NCBI GenBank assembly: GCA_965247995.1
Contig: OZ252041.1
Location: 494,197 to 558,196 of the forward strand
DNA length: 64,000 nt
Origin: Dehalococcoidia bacterium
Lineage (GTDB): Bacteria; Chloroflexota; Dehalococcoidia; UBA6926
Reading direction: 5' to 3'
The notes under the pieces are model-generated. The model was given only the letters and a program-made list of their open reading frames with translations, searched no databases and had not been told where the DNA came from. The position numbers and the translations under genes were made by a program. Below are positions 2,207 through 36,275 of this stretch, one piece after another. The number at the start of each line of letters is the position of its first letter. Position 1 is the stretch's first letter.

Positions 2207-5210
<3,004 letters not shown>

Positions 5211-5309
5211 ATTAAAGACCCTCATGTTTGCCTCGTTCACGAACACTCTTGATCACCAACAAAGTTGGCCTGTTCACTTGTTAGGGCACCAGCTACCCGT
5301 CGGCTTCGG

Positions 5310-5384
<75 letters not shown>

Positions 5385-7630: not shown

Positions 7631-9154
7631 CTACTCCTCTTCGGCTAAGTCCAGGACAAAACTCACCAGTGTTCGTACCGGTTTTCCGGACGCGCCACGT
7701 ACCTGCCACCCCTTCTCGCTCTCCGAGTTCATCACACCAGCAATGTCCAGGTGCGCCCACGGTGTGTCGCCGGCAAACTCGTGCAGGAACTGCGCTGCGG
7801 CGATCGCGCCTGCGGGTTGGCCGCCGGTGTTCTTTACATCTGCCACCCGGCTCTTGTTCTGTTCTTTGTACTCATCCCAGAGGGGCATCCGCCAGACTTT
7901 CTCCCCCGCCCCTTCACCGGCCCGCAATACGCGGTCCGCCACATCGTCGTCGTTCGAGAAGAGGCCGATTGCCACGGTACCCAGCGCGACGCGGATTGCC
8001 CCCGTCAGGGTGGCAACGTCGACCAGCGGACGCATACCCTCGGCGTTCGCGTACGAGAGCGCGTCCGCGAGCACGAGCCGTCCCTCCGCGTCGGTGTTCT
8101 CCACCTCGATCGTCTTGCCGTTCATGGCTACCAACACATCACCGGGTTTCGTTGCGCCCCCGCCGGGCAGGTTCTCGGTCGCCGGCACTAACGCGGTCAC
8201 ATTGATCGGAGGCGCGAGCTTCGCGATCGCCTGCATCGCCGCGATCACCGACGCGCCGCCCGCCATATCACCCTTCATCGCCCCCATGTTTGCCGCCGGT
8301 TTGAGCGAGATCCCGCCCGAGTCGAACGTGATGCCCTTCCCGAGCAGGCCGATCGTGGGTCGACGGCCCTCAGGGTCGCCAAGGTAACGCATGACGATGA
8401 ACTGGGGAGGCTCATGCGACCCTCGGGCCACACCGAGTACGGCGCCCATCCCGAGCCGTTCCATCTCAGCCCGATCAAACCGCTCGAATTCCAGCCCGTT
8501 CGCTTCGGCCACTTCTTGGGCCCGGTCAGCCAGGACCGTCGGCGTCATGTAGTTCGCCGGTTCGTTCACCAGGTCCCGTGCAAGCGCCGTGGCTTCAGCG
8601 AGCGCGCTTCCACGCAAGACGCCAACCTCGGCTTCAGCAGCGCGGGCCGTATTGTTTTCGACCATCATGAACTCGGCGATCTCCTTGGCGGAGTCACCGT
8701 CATCTTCGTCCTTCTTACTGAAGTGGCGCCGAAAGCGGTAAAGGCCCAGCGACACTCCCTCCGCAAAGGCCTGCGCGGCCGCTGACGGTTCCATGCCACC
8801 AATCCCCGCACCGTGCAGGATGCTGGCGACGCGCGCGTACCCCTTCCCGCGAACGAAGCGGGCCACATCGCCTCCCAGGTTTCGAAGTGTGTCGATCGAT
8901 AGCTTCTCCGCCGAACCGAGCCCTGCAACGACGACACGTTTCGCCTGGATCTTGCCTTGCGTGTGGATCAGCGTGAGCTCCCCGGATTTGCCGGTGATGT
9001 CTCCGTCGCTGATCAGCGCGGTTATGGTCCCTCCCATGGCGCGGTTGACGGCCCCGGTCGCCCCCGCCGGCTCCTTCACTCCCCGGAACAGGTTGACGAC
9101 CAGACAATCGGCGTCCGTCTCCAGGATGTCTCCGACGACGAGCTTCAACTCCAC
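7631..9154 (-). CDS. pepA: Leucyl aminopeptidase (M17 family)
   Basis: 507 aa with the M17 signature NTDAEGRL, plus VGKGITFDSGG and MKGDMAG motifs. Confidence 0.85.
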   Translation of the reverse strand: MELKLVVGDILETDADCLVVNLFRGVKEPAGATGAVNRAMGGTITALISDGDITGKSGELTLIHTQGKIQAKRVVVAGLGSAEKLSIDTLRNLGGDVARFVRGKGYARVASILHGAGIGGMEPSAAAQAFAEGVSLGLYRFRRHFSKKDEDDGDSAKEIAEFMMVENNTARAAEAEVGVLRGSALAEATALARDLVNEPANYMTPTVLADRAQEVAEANGLEFERFDRAEMERLGMGAVLGVARGSHEPPQFIVMRYLGDPEGRRPTIGLLGKGITFDSGGISLKPAANMGAMKGDMAGGASVIAAMQAIAKLAPPINVTALVPATENLPGGGATKPGDVLVAMNGKTIEVENTDAEGRLVLADALSYANAEGMRPLVDVATLTGAIRVALGTVAIGLFSNDDDVADRVLRAGEGAGEKVWRMPLWDEYKEQNKSRVADVKNTGGQPAGAIAAAQFLHEFAGDTPWAHLDIAGVMNSESEKGWQVRGASGKPVRTLVSFVLDLAEEE

Positions 9155-26014: not shown

Positions 26015-26743
26015 ATGGCCATGTCACGCCATCCCGACGCTGAACCGGACCTCCCGGACGACAGCTACTGGGCCGCCGTCGGCCTCCAAACTCGGTCGGA
26101 CACTGGACCGGGCAACAACGATGGGCACCGGGGCCGCCGGTTCCTACGTGAGGTCGTGGAGACCGTTGCCGCCGCTGCCATCCTCTTCTTTGTCATACAG
26201 GCCATGGTCCAAAGCTACCAGGTTCAGGGTCCCAGCATGGAGCCGAGCGTTCACAACAACGAGCTCTTGCTCGTCAACAAGGCCGTCTACTTCAACGTTG
26301 CGCGGTCCACCGTCGACCTGCTGCTCCCCTTCGTCGACCTCCAGAATGGCAACGACATTTACCCCTTCCATCCCCCTCGGCGTGGTGACATCGTCGTCCT
26401 CCGGGGTCCGGACGGCTCGACGCGAGATTTCATCAAACGCATCGTCGCCATCCCCGGCGACACGCTAGAACTCCGTCGCGGTGAGCTCTACGTCAAAGAC
26501 GAACTGGTGGACGAGCCATACCTCGCCGATCTCGACTCCCGCGGCTCCGTTGGTCCGATCGTGATCCCACCCGGCTCCTACTATGTCCTCGGCGACAACC
26601 GGTCTGTCAGCCGCGACTCCCGCTCCTGGGGCCCAATCTCGGAGGAGATGATCGTCGGCAAGGCCTGGATCGCCTACTGGCCGTTCGGCGAACTCGGATT
26701 CCTCGGCCACACCCCCGCACCAGTCAGCGCCACGAGCACCTGA
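26015..26743 (+). CDS. lepB: Signal peptidase I
   Basis: Catalytic Ser box GPSMEP, Lys box, and GDNRSVSRDSR motif; N-terminal TM anchor. Confidence 0.85.
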   Translation: MAMSRHPDAEPDLPDDSYWAAVGLQTRSDTGPGNNDGHRGRRFLREVVETVAAAAILFFVIQAMVQSYQVQGPSMEPSVHNNELLLVNKAVYFNVARSTVDLLLPFVDLQNGNDIYPFHPPRRGDIVVLRGPDGSTRDFIKRIVAIPGDTLELRRGELYVKDELVDEPYLADLDSRGSVGPIVIPPGSYYVLGDNRSVSRDSRSWGPISEEMIVGKAWIAYWPFGELGFLGHTPAPVSATST

Positions 26744-26782
26744 TCGGTTGCGCCGCGACGGCGCTTCAGCGAGGGACGAGAG

Positions 26783-27202
26783 ATGCAGACAGATGAATCC
26801 GCGCGGAAATCACCATCACCGGCACGATGCGTAGCCGGAGCCTTGATTAGGGATGACGAAATCCTACTCGTGAAGCGGAGCTTGCAAGCCTCCTACTACC
26901 CCGGCGTCTGGGATCGGTTTGGAGGGCATGTTGAGAAGGACGAAACTGCGCGCGACGCCTTACACCGTGAAGCTGTAGAGGAGCTCCAAGTGCGGATTGA
27001 ACGGTTCCAACCTTTGGGTTCCGCCCACGACCCGGTTGAACCTGCCGACATCACCGTCTTCGCCGTTTGGGAGTGGAAAAGGCGAGCCCGTCAACGCTGC
27101 ACCTCAAGAGCACAGCAGCATCCGCTGGTTCTCAAAGTGGGACCTTCCTCAATCCCCAGCTCTAGACCTTTATGGCGAGTTTGCTGGCGAGCGTTCGGCT
27201 AG
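26783..27202 (+). CDS. NUDIX hydrolase (apparently frameshifted near 27075)
   Basis: Nudix box GGHVEKDETARDALHREAVEELQV in frame. After ...VFAVWEWK the Nudix-like continuation (GEPVNAAPQEHSSIRWFSKWDLPQSPALDLY...) lies in the +1 frame (track ORF 26997..). An AAAA run sits at the frameshift junction. Confidence 0.45.
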   Translation: MQTDESARKSPSPARCVAGALIRDDEILLVKRSLQASYYPGVWDRFGGHVEKDETARDALHREAVEELQVRIERFQPLGSAHDPVEPADITVFAVWEWKRRARQRCTSRAQQHPLVLKVGPSSIPSSRPLWRVCWRAFG

Positions 27203-27329
27203 AGTCCGCGGACCGAAGCGCGGGACAGAACAGGCAGCGCGACGAAGCGGGAATACGCAAGGCAAAATCGAGATTAGGTTTCCGCTAACGAAGTCTTGCC
27301 GTCGCCTCCGAGCCGTTACAAACGCAAGG

Positions 27330-27761
27330 CTATTGATCGCCCTGCGGGGATGCCCAAAGGTGCCAGCCGGCTGCGCCTCCGACCAACACGAACAACGGGT
27401 CCACGAGAGCCCAGATGACCATACTCACCGTGGTCTGCGGGTCCTCGCCAACGACAAGGTTGTCGAACCAATTCCAAAAGAACCAAAGCGTCAGCGTGCC
27501 CGTTGCGTAGAAGGCCAGGTCCGCGCTCAGACGTGCACTCGACATGGGCTCGTCCGGACCGGCGCGGTGCGCTTCAGCCTTTCGAAGGTAGCGGGTAACC
27601 AAGGCAATCACGATTGCGGGCGCCATGAACCAGTCCAAGATGTCCCAAACGAACTCAACGTCAACGGCTTCTGTGTAGAACGGCGCAAACACAAAATGCA
27701 CCGCAACCACGGCTGCCAAAACCAACAAATAGATAGCTGCCAGCCTCTTAGCTATGTCCAT
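27330..27761 (-). CDS. Hypothetical small membrane protein (4 TM)
   Basis: 143 aa, strong AAGGAGGA RBS, four hydrophobic helices; no recognisable family. Confidence 0.5.
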   Translation of the reverse strand: MDIAKRLAAIYLLVLAAVVAVHFVFAPFYTEAVDVEFVWDILDWFMAPAIVIALVTRYLRKAEAHRAGPDEPMSSARLSADLAFYATGTLTLWFFWNWFDNLVVGEDPQTTVSMVIWALVDPLFVLVGGAAGWHLWASPQGDQ

Positions 27762-27880
27762 GGTTCTGTCCTCCTTCGACGTTCGCGCGACGGCATGGTA
27801 ACAGTCGGTCGAAGTCGGATCTCACTTTGGGAGCACTCCTTGGAGCCCTAACTGGGTGATCCTTGGCCACCGCTACGTTG

Positions 27881-28393
27881 CTAGCCGAATGCGGTGCGGA
27901 AGAGACGGCGAACGGAATCGTCGGTCTCGATGCCGGCGAGGTCGCGGAGTGTGAACCAGCGCAGATCGAGCGATTCACCGCTCATGCGCGGCGCGGTGCC
28001 GGGACCAGCACGGAGGAGGAAGCGGGTATCGAAGTGCAGGTGCTCGGGCTCGCCGGGGCGGGCCGGTATCGTGTGAATATCGAGGTCTACCGGGGTGGGG
28101 TCAATCGCAAGATCGGCAATACCGCTCTCCTCAACCGCCTCTCGAAGCGCGACGCCGGCGAGGTTGGCGTCGCCGTCGGCGTGCCCACCGAGCTGGAGCC
28201 AGCGGCCCAGCTTGCGGTGATGGGTGAGCAGGGCGCGCCGCGCCTCGTGGTCAAGCACCAGAGCGGAGCCGGTGAGGTGCCCCGGCAGGCAAGTCCGAAG
28301 GTGCGCGTCCCCGGGGTGAGTTTCGATGAATGCCAGCACACCCGCTTGGACGGCCCGTTGCGCCTCGTCCGGCGCGTCGTACGCCAACAGCAC
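27881..28393 (-). CDS. NUDIX hydrolase
   Basis: Nudix box GGHADGDANLAGVALREAVEESGI; 170 aa. Confidence 0.7.
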   Translation of the reverse strand: MLLAYDAPDEAQRAVQAGVLAFIETHPGDAHLRTCLPGHLTGSALVLDHEARRALLTHHRKLGRWLQLGGHADGDANLAGVALREAVEESGIADLAIDPTPVDLDIHTIPARPGEPEHLHFDTRFLLRAGPGTAPRMSGESLDLRWFTLRDLAGIETDDSVRRLFRTAFG

Positions 28394-28702
28394 CCGCCAA
28401 GCCGCGCCGAGGTCGGAGGTCGACGGAAATGGTCCCCGAACAAATTGCCCAGCCCTGCCTACAGCGTCACCCCTACCAACTTTCGGCCTTCTCGATAGAC
28501 ACAGATCCGATTCTGGCCGACCGCGCGTGGCTCAACGACGCAGCCCCCGTCTGCCGACATCACAACTCGTCAACGTGTTGGCGTCTGCACCTAACGACAC
28601 GCTTCGTTGATCAAACACAAACCCATCTTCAACATAATCCACCAATTCTAGGTCTCCCTCGCGCCTGCCCGGCCCCCTCTCGCCAGGACCGCGGTCTGGA
28701 CG

Positions 28703-29638
28703 TCATTGCCCTAACAGGGGGCTGATATGCACTCGCAATTGTGAGGACGGTGTTGATCTAAGCGAGAGGATATCCCCCACCAGAAGGTAGGTGTAGACGA
28801 CGCACCGGTCTGCCTCTTCCCTCGTCAGCGTGTCGTGAGACCCCTTTTGAGCCGCTTTGAAGAGAGCGTCGAGTCTGTGGCCCATGTAGTGCAAGTGAGA
28901 CCCAACTATTTCCATATAACGCTTGGATTCTGACGAGTCATCAACGTATGCCATCAACCTGTTGATGTATTGACCGTCTCCTAGCTTCACTTCGGTCCCA
29001 TTCCGTGTCCGCGTTCCATCCTGTGGAGGAAAAATGGCGTCAGCCAAAGCCTCGAGTACTCTCCGCCAGCTATGTGCTGCGTTAGACCAGTCTTCAGGGT
29101 TGTTCGACGCAAGATCATTGTAAGCGGGTACTAGCTTCTCTACAGCGTCTGGCACTGTAATCCCGATCAATGAGTCTACTTGAGCGGGCGTCCGTTCGAA
29201 TACATTATTGACAAGTCCAGAACACCCAATCGCATAGTGCTTGTTGGCGACGTAGCTGTGAATGTGGGTGCGTCGAGAGGCAAGCTGCTTAATAGTCGCG
29301 TCCATACCACTCAGAATCCATTTCTTCTCGTATAGGGCAGTCCCCGGAGCAGTGCCCTGATATGTGCCCTGAAGCACGGCGTCCCCTTTGGCAACATCGT
29401 ACTCGCATTTCTCGATGGCCTTCGGTCTTCCTGCTGAGGGATCATAGCCACTGCTCATCCGCTCGCACTCCCGCTGAACGTCGGGATCATTCAGGATGCC
29501 GGCTAGGCGTATCACTCTCAGTACCACGTTAGACAGATGCTCTCGCCCCATCTCGATGTCCTCGAGAATCTCGCTAGAGAGAGCCTCGGCCTCCTCCGAG
29601 ACCTTAGTCGCGATGTTGAACGTGGGACTAGTTTCCAC
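28703..29638 (-). CDS. Orphan hypothetical protein on a low-GC islet (possible Abi/defence-type protein, unassigned)
   Basis: 311-aa ORF at about 50-52% GC and with atypical codon usage (AGA/AGG/ATA/TTA) in a ~66% GC genome; next to tRNA-Lys; no confident family match by eye. Confidence 0.5.
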   Translation of the reverse strand: METSPTFNIATKVSEEAEALSSEILEDIEMGREHLSNVVLRVIRLAGILNDPDVQRECERMSSGYDPSAGRPKAIEKCEYDVAKGDAVLQGTYQGTAPGTALYEKKWILSGMDATIKQLASRRTHIHSYVANKHYAIGCSGLVNNVFERTPAQVDSLIGITVPDAVEKLVPAYNDLASNNPEDWSNAAHSWRRVLEALADAIFPPQDGTRTRNGTEVKLGDGQYINRLMAYVDDSSESKRYMEIVGSHLHYMGHRLDALFKAAQKGSHDTLTREEADRCVVYTYLLVGDILSLRSTPSSQLRVHISPLLGQ

Positions 29639-30130
29639 TCAAGCCTACCTTGCCCAGCATCAGGTTCCTGCAGGGAGCCCAAACTGTTACTTGAGAACCG
29701 AAGTCAGTTGGTACACTTGCAACGGGTCTGCTTGAGTGCTAGTTCCTTCAATCCCATTGCCACCCAGGCCCCGGCTTCTAAGGGATATTTTAGCACGCAA
29801 TATAACCCACGGAGAGATTCGTGACACGGCATCTTTTCTATCTCGCATCCCCACTGACCGCCGCACCATCGACTGACGGCAGAATGCTTGAACCTGTGAG
29901 AACCAGGTGGCACGATTCGGGACGGGAGAATCCCACCGGACCGCGGGCCTCCCGGATCCGCATTAGTGAACGTGGGGAGGACGCGAGCAACCCCACCTAC
30001 GGCCTCTCCTGAGCAGCGCATTGGTTTATCGGATGCCGAAGGCAGGGATGCTGACACCATGGGCGCCGAGCCTCCCCCGGTTACAGGACAAGGACGAACC
30101 TCAATACAAAGGTTGTTGATTTTGTCAAGT

Positions 30131-30205
30131 TGGTGGGCCGTGAGGGGATCGAACCCTCGACCTTGGGATTAAAAGTCCCCTGCTCTCCCGCTGAGCTAAC
30201 GGCCC
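30131..30205 (-). tRNA. tRNA-Lys (anticodon TTT)
   Basis: Minus strand: GGGCCGTTAGCTCAGCGGGAGAGCAGGGGACTTTTAATCCCCAAGGTCGAGGGTTCGATCCCCTCACGGCCCACCA; good cloverleaf; CCA encoded. Confidence 0.85.
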
Positions 30206-30222
30206 GTCCAAGTCTACGCCCG

Positions 30223-31092
30223 CTACGGCTGCGACCGCGCTGGCGTTCCCTTGCCGCCCTGACAAGTCGGGCATGTGTACGTCCCGCGGCCTCCAACCAC
30301 GGACCGCTCGATCGGTGTCCCACACGCGATACACGGCGCCCCGGCGTTCCTCGGCATCCGTAACACCTCCGCGGCGCCCTCCTGCGACTCGGTCGGAGGC
30401 TCCACGATGTCACCCGCCCACACCAGCGCGTCGAGCGTCCGGACCGCCCGCGCCAACGTCGACACGACCGCGTCCCGCAGCGTCTCGACCTCTCTCTCGT
30501 CGAGCGACCCCGCAGCCCGCAGCGGATGCAACCTCGCCGCGAACAAGGCCTCGTCCGCGTAGATATTCCCCACACCCGCAGCAACACCCTGGTCCAACAG
30601 CAGCGCCTTCACTGGCGCCCTCCTGCCCGCCAACTGTTCCCGTAAGAACGCAACCCCGAACTCGGGATTCGGCGACAAGTCCTCCATCAGCGGCTCCGGC
30701 CCCAGACCACTCACCAACTCAACCGGGTCCGCGACCCACCACACGCTCCCGAACACGCGCGGGTCGACGAACCGCAGCGACCGGCCTCCGCCCAACGCCA
30801 GCACGAACCGCGTGTACGCTGGTAACTCCGCTGACGATGGTTCGATCCGCGGCGCCCCGGTCATCCCCATGTGCAGGACCAACGAGCCTTCATCCAGCGC
30901 CGCCAGGAGAAACTTCGCACGCCGGTCGAGCCGCTGGACCGTCGAACCAAGCACCCGTTCCACGAACTCCCCAGTAGAGGGAGCCTTCACGATCGATTCC
31001 CGCAGCACATCCACGCCAACGATCCTCGCGCCGACCGCGCCGTCACGGATCAGCGACTGTCGGAACGCCTCGACGTCGGGCAGTTCAGGCAC
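30223..31092 (-). CDS. mutM: Formamidopyrimidine-DNA glycosylase
   Basis: GTG start gives (M)PELPDVE with the catalytic Pro2; C-terminal zinc finger CIACGTPIERSVVGGRGTYTCPTCQ. Confidence 0.85.
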   Translation of the reverse strand: MPELPDVEAFRQSLIRDGAVGARIVGVDVLRESIVKAPSTGEFVERVLGSTVQRLDRRAKFLLAALDEGSLVLHMGMTGAPRIEPSSAELPAYTRFVLALGGGRSLRFVDPRVFGSVWWVADPVELVSGLGPEPLMEDLSPNPEFGVAFLREQLAGRRAPVKALLLDQGVAAGVGNIYADEALFAARLHPLRAAGSLDEREVETLRDAVVSTLARAVRTLDALVWAGDIVEPPTESQEGAAEVLRMPRNAGAPCIACGTPIERSVVGGRGTYTCPTCQGGKGTPARSQP

Positions 31093-33094: not shown

Positions 33095-33799
33095 ATGGCG
33101 CTCATCGGGACCAGCGGGTACAACTACAACGAATGGAAGGGCAACTTCTACCCGCAGGGCCTCCCAAACGCGCGGATGCTTGAGTTCTACGCCAGCCAGT
33201 TCTCAACCGTTGAGATCAACTACTCCTTCTACCGGATGCCCAGCGAGAAGGTGATCGCCGATTGGGTCGCCACGACGCCCGACGGTTTCACGTTTACGCT
33301 CAAAGCGCCGCGCCGGATCACACACGACGCGCGGTTGCAACCGGAGCCCGGCCTGTTGGAGACTTTCCTCGACCGGGCTCGCCAGCTGGGAGACAAACTT
33401 GGCGTCGTGCTCTTCCAACTGCCACCGTCGTTCCGTGCCGACCTCGATGTCTTCGACGGTTTCGTGGACTGGTTGCCACACGGCGTTCGGGTGGCGCTCG
33501 AATTCCGCAACCGTTCCTGGCTCACGGACGACGTGTACGACCGCATGAGAGTCCGAAACCTCGCCCTCTGCGTGACCGACAACGAGGATTCCACGACCCC
33601 CGACGTCGTGACCGCCGACTACGGCTACCTCCGGTTACGCGACGAGGGTTACTCCCCGGACGACATCGGCCGGTGGGCATCGTTGGTCACCGAACGCGAG
33701 TCCGGCGCATGGAATCAGATCTTCGTCTACTTCAAGCACGAGGACGAGGGCAAAGGGCCGGAGTTCGCTCGTGCACTCGCCGCCCGGCTGGCCGGGTAG
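33095..33799 (+). CDS. DUF72 (YecE-like) family protein
   Basis: 234 aa with the conserved N-terminus GTSGYNYNEWKGNFYP. Confidence 0.7.
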   Translation: MALIGTSGYNYNEWKGNFYPQGLPNARMLEFYASQFSTVEINYSFYRMPSEKVIADWVATTPDGFTFTLKAPRRITHDARLQPEPGLLETFLDRARQLGDKLGVVLFQLPPSFRADLDVFDGFVDWLPHGVRVALEFRNRSWLTDDVYDRMRVRNLALCVTDNEDSTTPDVVTADYGYLRLRDEGYSPDDIGRWASLVTERESGAWNQIFVYFKHEDEGKGPEFARALAARLAG

Positions 33800-33869
33800 C
33801 CGGACCGGGGCTCATTGACCCCCTAGACCGCGGAACCTATCGTTGCCCAATCCTGGGGGTGGGGCGAAC

Positions 33870-36275
33870 ATGACTACCAACGGCACGAACGGGGCATCAC
33901 CAAAAGCGCTCGGCCACCTGCGCGTCATCGAGCTCGGTCAAATGCCGGCAGCTTATGCGGCGGGTTTCCTGGGCGGCCTGGGCGCAGACGTCATCAAGAT
34001 CGAGCCTCCCGGGGGCGACCCGAACCGCTCCCTCCCGCCCTTCGCCGGCGGTACCGCCGGTCCGGAACGGAGCATCCCGTTTCTAAATGCCAATCTGAAC
34101 AAGCGCAGCATCGTCCTCGACGTCAACGAAGCCGCAGACCGTAAGAACGTCAGGGCCCTTATTGACCGGTCAGACATTCTCATCGAGGCTACCCCTCCGG
34201 GCTACTTGGATTCCATCGGCCTCGGCGAAACCGCGCTTCGCGATTCCAATCCCGGCCTCGTCACCGTCTCCATCACCCCCTTCGGCCAAGACGGGCCATA
34301 CAGTCACTATCTCAGTGGGGACGCTATTGCCGCCGCCATGTCTGGCCTCATGATGAGCCAGGGAGACAACGAGCGCGCACCCGTCGTTCCCCCCTGCCAG
34401 ATGTCCTATCAACTCGCCGGCATCGAGAGCGCGTACCTCGCCGTCGCCGCGGTCAGGCATCGGCGGCGGACAGGATCGGGTCAACGGATCGACGTCTCCC
34501 TCCAAGAAGCCCTGACCTTCGCAACCGTGAGCACCGTGGCGCGCTACGGTCAACGGAGCGAGATCGCCACGAGACCCGGAGCCGCTGGCGGCGCATCCAA
34601 CATCTACCGCTGCAAAGACGGCAGATACGCCGCCCTGGCCATCTTCATGACAGGACACTGGCGCGTCCTCACCCGTGGTTGGATGGAGGACCCCATCCTG
34701 TCCGACGACGAATGGGACTCGTCTCAGTACCGCACCGACAACCAAGACGTCGCCCAAGTGCTCATCGGGCAGTTCATCGAGCAGTTCGACCGCGACGAGT
34801 TCGTCGCCGAAGCGCAGGCGCATAGATTGGCCTGTTCTCCGGTCAACACGTTCGAGGACTTCGTCACAAGTCAGCACATGCGCGAGCGCGGATGGTTCCG
34901 GACGGTCGACCACCCCATCGTCGGTCGGTACGAGGCCCCGGGCCCTCCGGCAACGCTGGAACGAACGCCGTTCGCCATCAGCCGCCCAGCGCCGTTGCTC
35001 GACCAACACCGGGACGAAATCCTCGCCGAACTCACGTCGGTTCCACCCCGAGGTCAGACCTCCGCAGCCGACCCGGCAGCGGCCCCCGACGCGCCGCTGC
35101 TCGAAGGGATTCGTGTCGCCGACATCACACGTGCGTTCGCGGGACCAATCGGGACCATGTTCCTGGGGTTCTACGGCGCCGAGGTCGTCAAGGTCGAGTC
35201 CACCAGCCTCGAGGCAAATCGCGAGCCGAACCGCCCAGTGTTCGCCGACCTCAACCGCAACAAGATCAGTTCCACGATCGATCTCCGCTCCCAGGACGGA
35301 AAGGACTTGTTCAAGCGCCTTGTCTCCAAGAGCGACGTGGTCGTCGATAACTTCAGCGCCGAGGTGATGCGGCGGTTCGGCCTCGGCTGGAACGACCTCA
35401 GACAGATCAAGCCGGACATCATCCAGATCGGCATGCCTGGTATGGGCTCTACCGGGCCCCTCAACTCGTGGGTCACCTACGGGAACCAGCTCCAGGCCTA
35501 CACCGGCCTCACGCTACTCTGGGGCCACCCGGAATCGGAGATGTCGGCCCACGCCAAAGGCGTCATGCCGGACTACGTCGGCGCAGCGTTCGTCGCGCTC
35601 GTCAGCGCCGCCGCTATCGAGTACCGAGACCGAACAGGTGAAGGTCAGTTCATCGAGATCAGTCAGGTCGATGGGCAAGGCGCGCTCATGGGACCACCAG
35701 TGCTCGACTACACGATCAACGGCAATTCGTGGAACTCCGTCGGCTACGACGAGCCGTTGACGGCGAACCTCGCGCCCTTCGGTGCGTACCCGTGCAGCCA
35801 CCCTGACAGTTGGATCGTCATCACCTGCGAGTCCAACCAACAGTGGGACGCGCTCAAGGCAGTGATGGGAGCTCCCACTTGGGCCGAGAATCCGGACTTC
35901 GCGGATCTCGCCGGACGCCGCGCCAACCGCGACGAGATCGACCACGAGATCGCCGAGTGGACTCGGGCCTTCTCTCCTCAACAAGCCCTGCGCCTACTCC
36001 AAGGCGGAAGCGTTCCTGCTGGCATCGCGATGAACGGCGAGCAGATGTTCAACGACATCCACTTGAGGCACCGCAGCCACTTGGTGGAAGTCGATGCACC
36101 CCCATGGGGTGTGCTGACCCATCAGGGCCTGCCCGCGATTCCCGCCAGGTCGAAGGCCTCCGCTGCCGTGCGCGCGCCCTGGATCGGCGACCACAACGAC
36201 TATGTATTGAAAGACATCCTCGAACTCTCCGATGACGCGATCAAAGCGTGGCAGGAAGCGGGAGTCATTCGCTGA
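33870..36275 (+). CDS. Class III CoA-transferase (CaiB/BaiF family), tandem two-domain fusion
   Basis: About 800 aa with two complete CoA-transferase III units (LRVIELGQMPAAYAAGFLGGLGADVIKIE... and IRVADITRAFAGPIGTMFLGFYGAEVVKVE...). Start moved to ATG 33870 behind a GGGGTGGGG RBS. Confidence 0.7.
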   Translation: MTTNGTNGASPKALGHLRVIELGQMPAAYAAGFLGGLGADVIKIEPPGGDPNRSLPPFAGGTAGPERSIPFLNANLNKRSIVLDVNEAADRKNVRALIDRSDILIEATPPGYLDSIGLGETALRDSNPGLVTVSITPFGQDGPYSHYLSGDAIAAAMSGLMMSQGDNERAPVVPPCQMSYQLAGIESAYLAVAAVRHRRRTGSGQRIDVSLQEALTFATVSTVARYGQRSEIATRPGAAGGASNIYRCKDGRYAALAIFMTGHWRVLTRGWMEDPILSDDEWDSSQYRTDNQDVAQVLIGQFIEQFDRDEFVAEAQAHRLACSPVNTFEDFVTSQHMRERGWFRTVDHPIVGRYEAPGPPATLERTPFAISRPAPLLDQHRDEILAELTSVPPRGQTSAADPAAAPDAPLLEGIRVADITRAFAGPIGTMFLGFYGAEVVKVESTSLEANREPNRPVFADLNRNKISSTIDLRSQDGKDLFKRLVSKSDVVVDNFSAEVMRRFGLGWNDLRQIKPDIIQIGMPGMGSTGPLNSWVTYGNQLQAYTGLTLLWGHPESEMSAHAKGVMPDYVGAAFVALVSAAAIEYRDRTGEGQFIEISQVDGQGALMGPPVLDYTINGNSWNSVGYDEPLTANLAPFGAYPCSHPDSWIVITCESNQQWDALKAVMGAPTWAENPDFADLAGRRANRDEIDHEIAEWTRAFSPQQALRLLQGGSVPAGIAMNGEQMFNDIHLRHRSHLVEVDAPPWGVLTHQGLPAIPARSKASAAVRAPWIGDHNDYVLKDILELSDDAIKAWQEAGVIR

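Follow-up and report, generated by a model that had tools for sequence, protein, structure and literature searches.

Organization of the locus at tRNA-Lys(UUU)

The window analysed here is a 64,000-nucleotide stretch of a Dehalococcoidia genome. An islet at 28450–30130 abuts the 3′ end of a tRNA-Lys gene and carries, as the preliminary description of this DNA had reported for both elements, a single 311-residue open reading frame (ORF) on the minus strand (28703–29638). The features of the islet and of the adjoining DNA are the following.

26716–28393, no strand: rest of the variable slot that runs from tRNA-Lys to the signal peptidase gene (homology breaks, composition, Pfam, PADLOC)
26783–27202, plus strand: NUDIX gene, frameshifted relative to a second strain, L001 (indel at 27180); GC3 0.59
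27330–27761, minus strand: membrane protein of 143 aa
27881–28393, minus strand: NUDIX gene with a native-like GC3 of 0.79
28394–28702, no strand: spacer of 309 nt from the 3′ end of the 311-aa gene to the NUDIX gene (ORF list, codon-position GC, PADLOC)
28703–28738, minus strand: 11-codon read-through tail and new stop codon (SNP at 28737, L301*)
28739–29221, minus strand: c2405-type HEPN C-terminal domain, residues 140–300, the presumed effector
29222–29638, minus strand: AbiTii-like N-terminal domain, residues ~1–139 (PADLOC, Pfam, alignment, AF2 model)
29639–30130, no strand: non-coding spacer of 492 nt, tRNA to gene, with no PADLOC and no Rfam match
within 29639–30130: RBS-like AAGGTAGG, 6 nt 5′ of the GTG start of the 311-aa ORF, read from the sequence
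29704–30060, minus strand: spurious 118-aa ORF (orf118) in the 492-nt spacer, with flat codon-position GC
30108–30130: tRNA trailer of 23 nt, like a repeated motif in a homologue locus, L004
30131–30205, minus strand: tRNA-Lys, anticodon UUU (ARAGORN; Rfam tRNA, 68.9 bits), its 3′ end facing the islet

The islet is compositionally foreign and lies inside a slot of variable gene content next to the tRNA-Lys(UUU) 3′ end. Its GC content is 55.4%, against a window mean of 62.7%, which makes 28450–30130 the lowest-GC 1.7-kb stretch in the window, about 4 SD under the sliding-window mean; elsewhere in the window GC is low only across the 23S rRNA gene. The ORF itself has 53.7% GC. The dip had thus been located correctly in the preliminary description, but its depth had not, the values given there being 50–52% for the islet and 65–68% for the window. 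GC3 of the 311-aa ORF is 0.60, compared with 0.73–0.89 in the 27 other long ORFs of the window, and the four codons previously singled out as rare (AGA, AGG, ATA and TTA) are indeed enriched about 3-fold (10 of its 311 codons; background, 132 of 13362; odds ratio 3.3, p = 0.0015).

The unconserved block of odd composition exceeds the islet and also takes in 26716–28393. Because two relatives keep the flanking genes and carry other genes between them, the variable slot is 26716–30130. In both of these relatives (n = 2; L085 and L087) ThrRS-Fpg-tRNA-Lys and the signal peptidase gene are kept and the intervening genes differ, homology with the window ending at 30133 and 30124 and restarting at ~26710–26715. 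Their slot holds FTHFS, alone or with PrkA, and both NUDIX genes are absent from it; the empty site implied earlier, with tRNA-Lys followed directly by the NUDIX gene, is not seen in them. That gene is present in the window, at 27881–28393, but position 28393 is its start and not, as had been stated, its end. In the nearest genomes found by a ThrRS scan of GTDB (ThrRS 72% and 64% identical) the Fpg/tRNA-Lys neighbourhood is already lost.

The 309-nt spacer contains no convincing gene, only overlapping plus-strand ORFs devoid of coding signature, and shows no PADLOC match and no homology in the loci examined. No integrase is encoded within 26716–30130, a search of 26500–30400 for further copies of the tRNA 3′ end, allowing up to three mismatches, gave none, and direct or inverted repeats in the same interval were not convincing, in agreement with the initial reading that integrase and clear att repeat are missing. 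An Rfam search of the spacers with an E-value threshold matched only the tRNA, and a scan for promoters and terminators gave counts no higher than those in shuffled sequence. Of the two marks of a tRNA-targeted integrative island, an integrase gene and a directly repeated tRNA 3′ end at the opposite border, the locus shows neither.

The 311-aa protein is an AbiTii-HEPN family member

The product of 28703–29638 (minus strand), formerly taken for an orphan, is a stand-alone member of a family whose proteins pair an AbiTii-type domain at the N terminus with a c2405-type HEPN domain at the C terminus; a search of a 90%-identity database gave 306 matches, and a 50%-identity library contains 1171 representatives. 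The C-terminal domain aligns with C_RS11400 (WP_001120270.1) of E. coli CFT073 over 177 residues (aa 123–299; BLASTP 2e-29, 33% identity; hhalign 99.5%). C_RS11400, whose RefSeq label is “ComEA family DNA-binding protein”, comes seventh among the annotated features that follow tcpC (= c2398), which leads to c2405 by count, and it carries a helix-hairpin-helix (HhH) tail; from gene order and the tail, it is probably c2405. The fusion of an AbiTii N-terminal domain to the “c2405” HEPN domain, with the histidine conserved, the arginine absent and a C-terminal HhH present in some cases, was described by Anantharaman et al. (2013, Biol Direct 8:15; PMC3710099), who placed c2405 in a “DUF4145-like” HEPN group. 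Both the family, which is common, and its architecture were thus already described computationally in 2013, and the “undescribed function” proposed for the islet finds no support. Among diverse family members, 45 of 60 match PF18864, four carry a C-terminal HhH and two match DUF4145 weakly (E = 0.024); the window protein has no DUF4145 match itself and no meaningful match in NCBIfam.

The N-terminal domain, the presumed sensor, is all-helical in the AF2 model, with helices spanning residues 5–139. It is ~45–50 residues shorter than in longer homologues, as judged from alignment gaps, a difference of about a quarter of the AbiTii domain. Only aa 20–66 are covered by its matches to the AbiTii models of Pfam (PF18864, E = 0.11) and PADLOC (E = 1e-3), and the Pfam score of 13.2 bits lies under the cut-off of 27.6, which the full-length aligned homologues pass; longer homologues, of 340–390 aa, reach the PF18864 gathering score.

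The C-terminal domain has the fold of the HEPN superfamily, an up-down bundle of four helices in which an insert separates helix 2 from helix 3. Its conserved residues are E182, R192, R193, D200, N226, R227 and the stretch K265-G-S-H268, which in the AF2 model falls in the loop joining helices 3 and 4, where the Rx4-6H motif is located in HEPN proteins (end of helix 3/start of the loop to helix 4; PMC3710099). H268 is invariant in alignments of closer homologues and at least 90% conserved in a diverse set, as are K265 and G266 in the latter. The arginine of Rx4-6H is missing family-wide, and in the window protein no arginine precedes H268 by 4–6 residues, the sequence there being AAQKGSH. This R-less motif is a known variant for the c2405 family and no ground for excluding it from HEPN. 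The histidine-rich patches pointed out in the preliminary description are not a family-wide feature: H125 is derived in the window copy, and within “SHLHYMGH” conservation is confined to H248. Queried with the full-length model, Foldseek returned no significant match in the PDB, and a PDB sequence search with two family profiles returned coiled-coil noise only. The early guess of an Abi/HEPN-like single-gene module agrees with the homology and fold evidence.

Comparison with known systems

The window protein resembles the c2405 prototype of E. coli CFT073 in its apparent two-domain architecture, in the conserved histidine accompanied by no motif arginine, and in being encoded by an accessory gene, found in islands and low in GC relative to its host. 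It differs in lacking the C-terminal HhH tail, in belonging to a ~300-aa subfamily with a shortened AbiTii domain, and in carrying substitutions at otherwise invariant positions. With AbiT of Lactococcus lactis (AbiTi + AbiTii) it shares an AbiTii-related N-terminal region, judged from the PADLOC and Pfam models (in Pfam under the threshold for the window protein itself), and the presumed coupling of a phage sensor to an RNase, AbiTi being a predicted endoribonuclease. AbiTii of Lactococcus contains no HEPN domain and depends on AbiTi supplied in trans; the window protein carries its predicted effector in the same chain, and its locus encodes no partner resembling AbiTi. Among other HEPN effectors of the Abi/defence type that consist of one polypeptide (AbiJ, AbiV, AbiD/F, the AbiA C-terminal domain, Tha and HepS), several have demonstrated RNase activity or phage triggers; unlike the window protein, these families carry Rx4-6H, either as such or as a defined variant, and they show no detectable sequence similarity to the window protein. 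DUF4145 (PF13643) likewise mostly keeps Rx4-6H.

Genomic context of homologues and probable acquisition

Five of six metagenomic homologue loci and the E. coli CFT073 locus adjoin defence-type, transposase or mobility genes, in what is a small sample. One homologue locus contains BREX PglZ/BrxL and a ScoMcrA-type HNH gene, and another a type I restriction-modification system with SIR2_2 and Mrr; other neighbours include an OLD-like ATPase/TOPRIM with transposases, HNH and NYN. The CFT073 homologue lies in the TcpC/TIR/macro serU island, and further homologues are found on plasmids. In one metagenomic locus and the two plasmid loci inspected, the neighbourhoods are mainly metabolic or unannotated. 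The E. coli gene is present in 198 of 5426 complete genomes, and the L004 homologue is bracketed by cassette-like direct repeats. As regards a phage origin, tblastn gave no match in 50,697 phage records, and there was no PHROG match.

In all seven hosts inspected the GC content of the gene is under that of its flanks, and DNA homology between the window and L002, the closest homologue locus, extends no farther than ~20 nt beyond the gene. Composition and codon usage are consistent with horizontal acquisition, and to this extent, together with the gene-limited DNA homology, the low GC relative to the flanks and the different slot content of the relatives, the acquisition proposed in the preliminary description finds support; its dating as “recent” needs qualifying, since the insertion appears to be older than the split of the two sampled strains.

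Apparent loss of constraint in the window copy

The window was compared with L001, to which it is 99.3% identical; the two sequences come from metagenome assemblies and differ by 13 SNPs in the gene. Of these, 12 are nonsynonymous and one is synonymous (dN/dS 3.45). The family long-term dN/dS is 0.13–0.30, and ThrRS, Fpg and NUDIX170 together show 6 nonsynonymous to 18 synonymous changes (Fisher p = 1e-4 against the gene). In each lineage derived changes have struck positions at which 56 of 56 homologues agree: R151P and C191W in the window copy, N226D and S238T in L001, which also carries A17T at a position that is alanine in 54 of 56 homologues. The window copy has gained two prolines in predicted helices and has lost the ancestral stop: the SNP at 28737 makes codon 301 a leucine in the window, a stop is retained in the L001 protein (P0001), and the aligned sequences of two further proteins, P0002 and P0003, finish at the ancestral stop point (...SSQ and ...SPQ). 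Relaxed constraint is suggested by the 12:1 changes, which include R151P, C191W and the stop loss, and the window copy is probably evolving free of purifying selection and losing function.

The 12:1 excess, drawn from these 13 SNPs and not significantly different from neutrality (p = 0.15), could equally reflect positive selection, and the gene would then be a fully functional defence gene of the same family caught in an arms race rather than in decay. We regard this reading as possible but rather unlikely. Both strains have an uninterrupted reading frame, the window copy retains H268, R192, K265, N226 and R227, a plausible RBS precedes the start codon and dN/dS exceeds 1; defence genes, moreover, often evolve fast. 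Against it, the 12:1 ratio is not significantly higher than neutrality predicts, the replacements include the two helix prolines and the stop loss, and both lineages have been hit at positions that all 56 homologues keep; diversifying selection usually spares core positions of this kind.

Proposed function

The best explanation for the locus, which we favour with somewhat more than even confidence, is an acquired, presumed defence effector of the AbiTii-HEPN family, of which this copy is probably decaying. From their architecture, HEPN biology and gene neighbourhoods, proteins of this family would act in abortive infection or defence as single-gene effectors. Sensing of a phage cue may fall to the AbiTii domain at the N terminus; in Lactococcus, mutations that escape AbiT map to the major capsid protein and to early phage genes. 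Sensing would release or activate the HEPN domain, presumably as a dimer, and the activated domain would cleave RNA in a metal-independent manner and so arrest the infected cell. The active site would be non-canonical, with H268 at the place of the histidine of Rx4-6H, and the invariant R192 and/or K265 may stand in for the arginine. No experimental test of any c2405/AbiTii-HEPN member was found in the literature searched, and both the defence function and the RNase activity of the family are predictions.

The HEPN domain may not be an RNase, because the catalytic arginine of Rx4-6H is absent. In that case the C-terminal domain would be a HEPN-folded non-nuclease with a binding or regulatory role, like the HEPN domains attached to nucleotidyltransferases, acting in something other than RNA cleavage and possibly outside defence. 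The absence of the arginine across the whole family speaks for this, as do the DNA-binding HhH tail of some homologues and the use of motif-less HEPN families as substrate-binding domains (PMC3710099). We nevertheless consider it doubtful: the histidine is strictly conserved at the catalytic position, and R192/R193, N226/R227 and K265 are invariant or nearly so, a pattern that suggests an active site over a scaffold; replacement of the arginine by another basic residue has been proposed for some HEPN families (PMC3710099); and the neighbourhoods are of the defence and mobile type.

A two-gene, AbiT-like system with orf118 as AbiTi is highly improbable and was rejected: the lactococcal arrangement is abiTi followed by abiTii, both required, and orf118, which resembles AbiTi in size (127 aa in Lactococcus), orientation and position directly upstream and is called as a gene in L001, matches only its own L001 copy among 5.8 billion proteins, has the base composition of non-coding DNA (GC 0.58/0.57/0.57 by codon position), has no PADLOC match and is absent upstream of the L002, L003 and L004 homologues.

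Implications

Under the favoured reading of an acquired and decaying effector, nothing here is surprising to a specialist. A bolder view, which we hold to be improbable, is that the ~300-aa subfamily with the short N-terminal domain constitutes a working single-gene immunity protein, with an R-less HEPN domain using H268 together with R192 and/or K265 and with the 12:1 ratio as the trace of an arms race. If this were true, the direct repeats of L004 and its motif resembling the tRNA trailer would mark a new minimal single-gene mobile cassette.

An apparent orphan of an uncultivated Dehalococcoidia is a member of a large family, with 1171 clusters at 50% identity, for which an effector role in abortive infection was predicted in 2013. 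Annotation of this family is poor, its members being labelled “hypothetical” or, in E. coli, as a ComEA-type protein, and Pfam models the N-terminal domain only, so that the HEPN half is missed by standard pipelines. As an illustration of a predicted defence gene apparently freed from selection after its acquisition, the comparison of the two strains is small and clean.

A low-GC islet beside tRNA-Lys

The ORF of the islet (28450-30130), the tRNA-Lys gene and the adjacent NUDIX gene lie where the preliminary description had placed them. As a minus-strand gene, tRNA-Lys has its 3′ end toward the islet.

Features of the window
2207-5212, 23S rRNA gene, ~57% GC, the only other low-GC tract in the window
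5310-5384, tRNA-Met, following the 23S rRNA gene
26783-27202, plus strand, first NUDIX gene of the variable slot, 139 aa, GC3 0.59 (atypical)
27330-27761, minus strand, predicted membrane protein of 143 aa, between the two NUDIX genes
27881-28393, minus strand, NUDIX gene (ORF listing and domain match)
28703-29638, minus strand, 311-aa ORF (ORF listing)
30131-30205, minus strand, tRNA-Lys(UUU) (tRNA gene search)

The islet is the lowest-GC 1.7-kb stretch of the window, ~4 SD under the sliding-window mean, with 55.4% GC (53.7% in the ORF) against a window mean of 62.7%. The GC3 of the ORF is 0.60, compared with 0.73-0.89 among 27 long ORFs of the window, and AGA, AGG, ATA and TTA codons are together enriched 3.3-fold (p = 0.0015). 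The compositional dip is genuine, although smaller than first reported. A 118-aa ORF (29704-30060, minus strand) upstream of the main gene has the size and position of an AbiTi, but was rejected as a coding gene: nothing in the database matched it except its counterpart in L001, the locus of a 99.3%-identical strain, its GC is even over the three codon positions and PADLOC gave no match. Neither of the two spacers (309 and 492 nt) matched Rfam or had homologous sequence in the loci examined.

The ORF belongs to the c2405 HEPN family

The ORF had been called an orphan, but a word-indexed search found 306 relatives and an exhaustive HMMER scan of 50%-identity representatives 1171, 739 of them with E ≤ 1e-10. 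Relatives of 340-390 aa carry the Pfam AbiTii domain (PF18864) at the N-terminus. The window protein matches the AbiTii model over no more than the first 47 model positions (Pfam E = 0.11; PADLOC E = 1e-3), and ~45-50 residues of the domain are missing from it and from its nearest ~300-aa relatives. The best-conserved region is the C-terminal half (residues 140-300), which none of the Pfam, NCBIfam or PHROG models covers. Across 60 diverse family members R192 is invariant, and E182, C191, D200, N226, R227, K265, G266, H268 and Y284 reach at least 90% conservation. Nor is the earlier suggestion of an undescribed function supported: the c2405 HEPN family was described computationally in 2013 and placed in the DUF4145-like clade, the lactococcal AbiTii itself being without a HEPN domain (Anantharaman et al. 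2013, PMC3710099). No experiments on the family were found in the literature searched.

The probable prototype of the family is C_RS11400 of Escherichia coli CFT073 (WP_001120270.1, 390 aa; NC_004431.1 2207572-2208744), the seventh annotated feature past tcpC (c2398) in the serU island. We infer its identity with c2405 from gene order and architecture, not from the locus tag. It matches the window protein across residues 123-299 (BLASTP 2e-29, 33% identity) and, weakly, in the first AbiTii helices, and it matches the family alignment at 99.5% in hhalign. It ends in an HHH_3 domain, and the RefSeq name “ComEA family DNA-binding protein”, which leaves the AbiTii-like and HEPN parts unannotated, is due to this C-terminal HhH tail alone. 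Within a few genes of it are tcpC, a second TIR gene and a gene with a macro domain; 198 of 5426 complete E. coli genomes carry it.

Predicted fold and active site

The AF2 model of the full-length window protein (pLDDT 78.9) is helical, with a single β-hairpin at 209-218; residues 140-300 modelled alone gave pLDDT 80.6 and pTM 0.77. Generic four-helix bundles (CheA P1, HPt), rival matches in the full-length search, disappeared with the 140-300 model. Neither Foldseek nor sequence search gave a significant match in the PDB. In the predicted models K265-G-S-H268 is located in the loop following helix 3, exactly where the HEPN motif Rx4-6H was placed by Anantharaman et al. (PMC3710099). No arginine is present 4-6 residues upstream of H268, in agreement with the published description of the c2405 family. 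The initial suggestion of an Abi- or HEPN-like protein is supported.

Probable horizontal acquisition into a variable slot

The organism was placed in Dehalococcoidia by its ThrRS, 72% identical to that of MAG S16_98. The gene arrangement in L001 is the same as in the window. RelA...ThrRS-Fpg-tRNA-Lys and, at the opposite end, signal peptidase-SIMPL-riboflavin genes are retained in two more distant relatives (L085 and L087; Fpg 74-76% identical), which carry between the tRNA 3′ end and the peptidase either an 88-aa ORF and FTHFS or a 186-aa ORF, PrkA and FTHFS. DNA homology with these loci, too distantly related to act as a true empty site, ends at 30124-30133 and restarts at ~26710-26715, and therefore defines a variable slot at 26716-30130. 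The slot, which also holds the two NUDIX genes and the membrane protein, is a compositional mosaic (GC3 0.59, 0.72, 0.79 and 0.60).

Horizontal acquisition, as originally proposed, is supported. DNA homology with the nearest homologue locus (L002, 72% amino-acid identity) is limited to 28708-29657, the gene ± 20 nt; gene GC is lower than that of the flanks in all seven hosts inspected, and the homologues occur in settings unrelated to one another, one of them clearly metabolic. None was found among 50,697 phage records.

Settings of homologues
Following BREX PglZ/BrxL and a ScoMcrA-type HNH gene
Following type I R-M, SIR2_2 and Mrr
Amid transposases, OLD-like ATPase/TOPRIM and DUF2971
Adjoining HNH in one locus and NYN in another
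TcpC/TIR/macro island of CFT073
Plasmids of Acinetobacter, Streptomyces, Alteromonas and others

As noted at the outset, the slot has neither an integrase nor a clear att repeat, a search for a repeat of the tRNA-Lys 3′ end having found none. In another homologue locus (L004), the gene (8001-8912) is flanked by 36-nt direct repeats (7898-7933 and 9001-9036, 78% identical), and three direct copies of CCACCATCTTGGACAAAATCGAGAAC come after them (9046, 11384 and 16147). This motif, possibly a recombination site of att-like or cassette type, resembles window 30108-30139, the tRNA-Lys 3′ end with a 23-nt trailer (88-90% over 31-33 nt, blastn E = 1.5e-4); the window contains no second copy.

Divergence from the sister strain

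Between the window and L001 the ORF differs by 13 substitutions, 12 of them nonsynonymous (dN/dS 3.45), a small sample from two metagenome assemblies. In ThrRS, Fpg and the adjacent NUDIX gene taken as a set, 6 changes are nonsynonymous and 18 synonymous (Fisher p = 1e-4 versus the ORF), and long-term dN/dS between family members is 0.13-0.30. When polarised against 56 homologues, F58C, S74A, R151P, A/S171P and C191W are derived in the window lineage, R151 and C191 each being kept in all 56; this lineage has also lost the ancestral stop codon, adding 11 codons. A17T, N226D, E237K and S238T are derived in the L001 lineage; all 56 homologues have the ancestral residue at N226 and S238, and 54 of them have it at A17. 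Positive selection could produce such an excess of replacements, but is not required, since the 12:1 ratio is not significantly above the neutral expectation (p = 0.15). Replacement of invariant residues in each of the two lineages, together with hardly any synonymous change, is the pattern that relaxed purifying selection would predict.

The window and L001 differ at 148 positions overall (142 mismatches and 6 gap columns). Forty-seven fall in 33500-35000 (DUF72 and CoA-transferase genes), which may be a recombination tract, compared with ~0-10 per 500 nt elsewhere; 13 SNPs are grouped in 27000-27500. The NUDIX protein encoded at 26783-27202 has 168 aa in L001 because the two sequences differ by 1 nt near 27180, through a frameshift or an error of assembly; its match to the PADLOC candidate model PDC-S07 (E = 8e-13) may reflect the NUDIX fold only. 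In the membrane protein, which has no family assignment, four of five differences are nonsynonymous, clustered in the last 7 residues.

Proposed mechanism

In lactococcal AbiT, AbiTii acts with AbiTi, which is encoded by a gene of its own and predicted to be an endoribonuclease; the mutations that allow escape lie in the capsid protein and in early genes of the phage. On the model of other Abi proteins, in which a sensor domain at the N-terminus is joined to a HEPN domain at the C-terminus, the AbiTii-like domain would detect a signal from the phage and thereby allow the HEPN domain fused to it to cut RNA. In the predicted active site H268 would serve as the general base, and R192 or K265 may stand in for the missing basic residue, as Anantharaman et al. 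(2013, PMC3710099) proposed for other HEPN families that lack the R. The window ORF is a new, probably decaying member of the computationally described c2405 family, the function of which is predicted.
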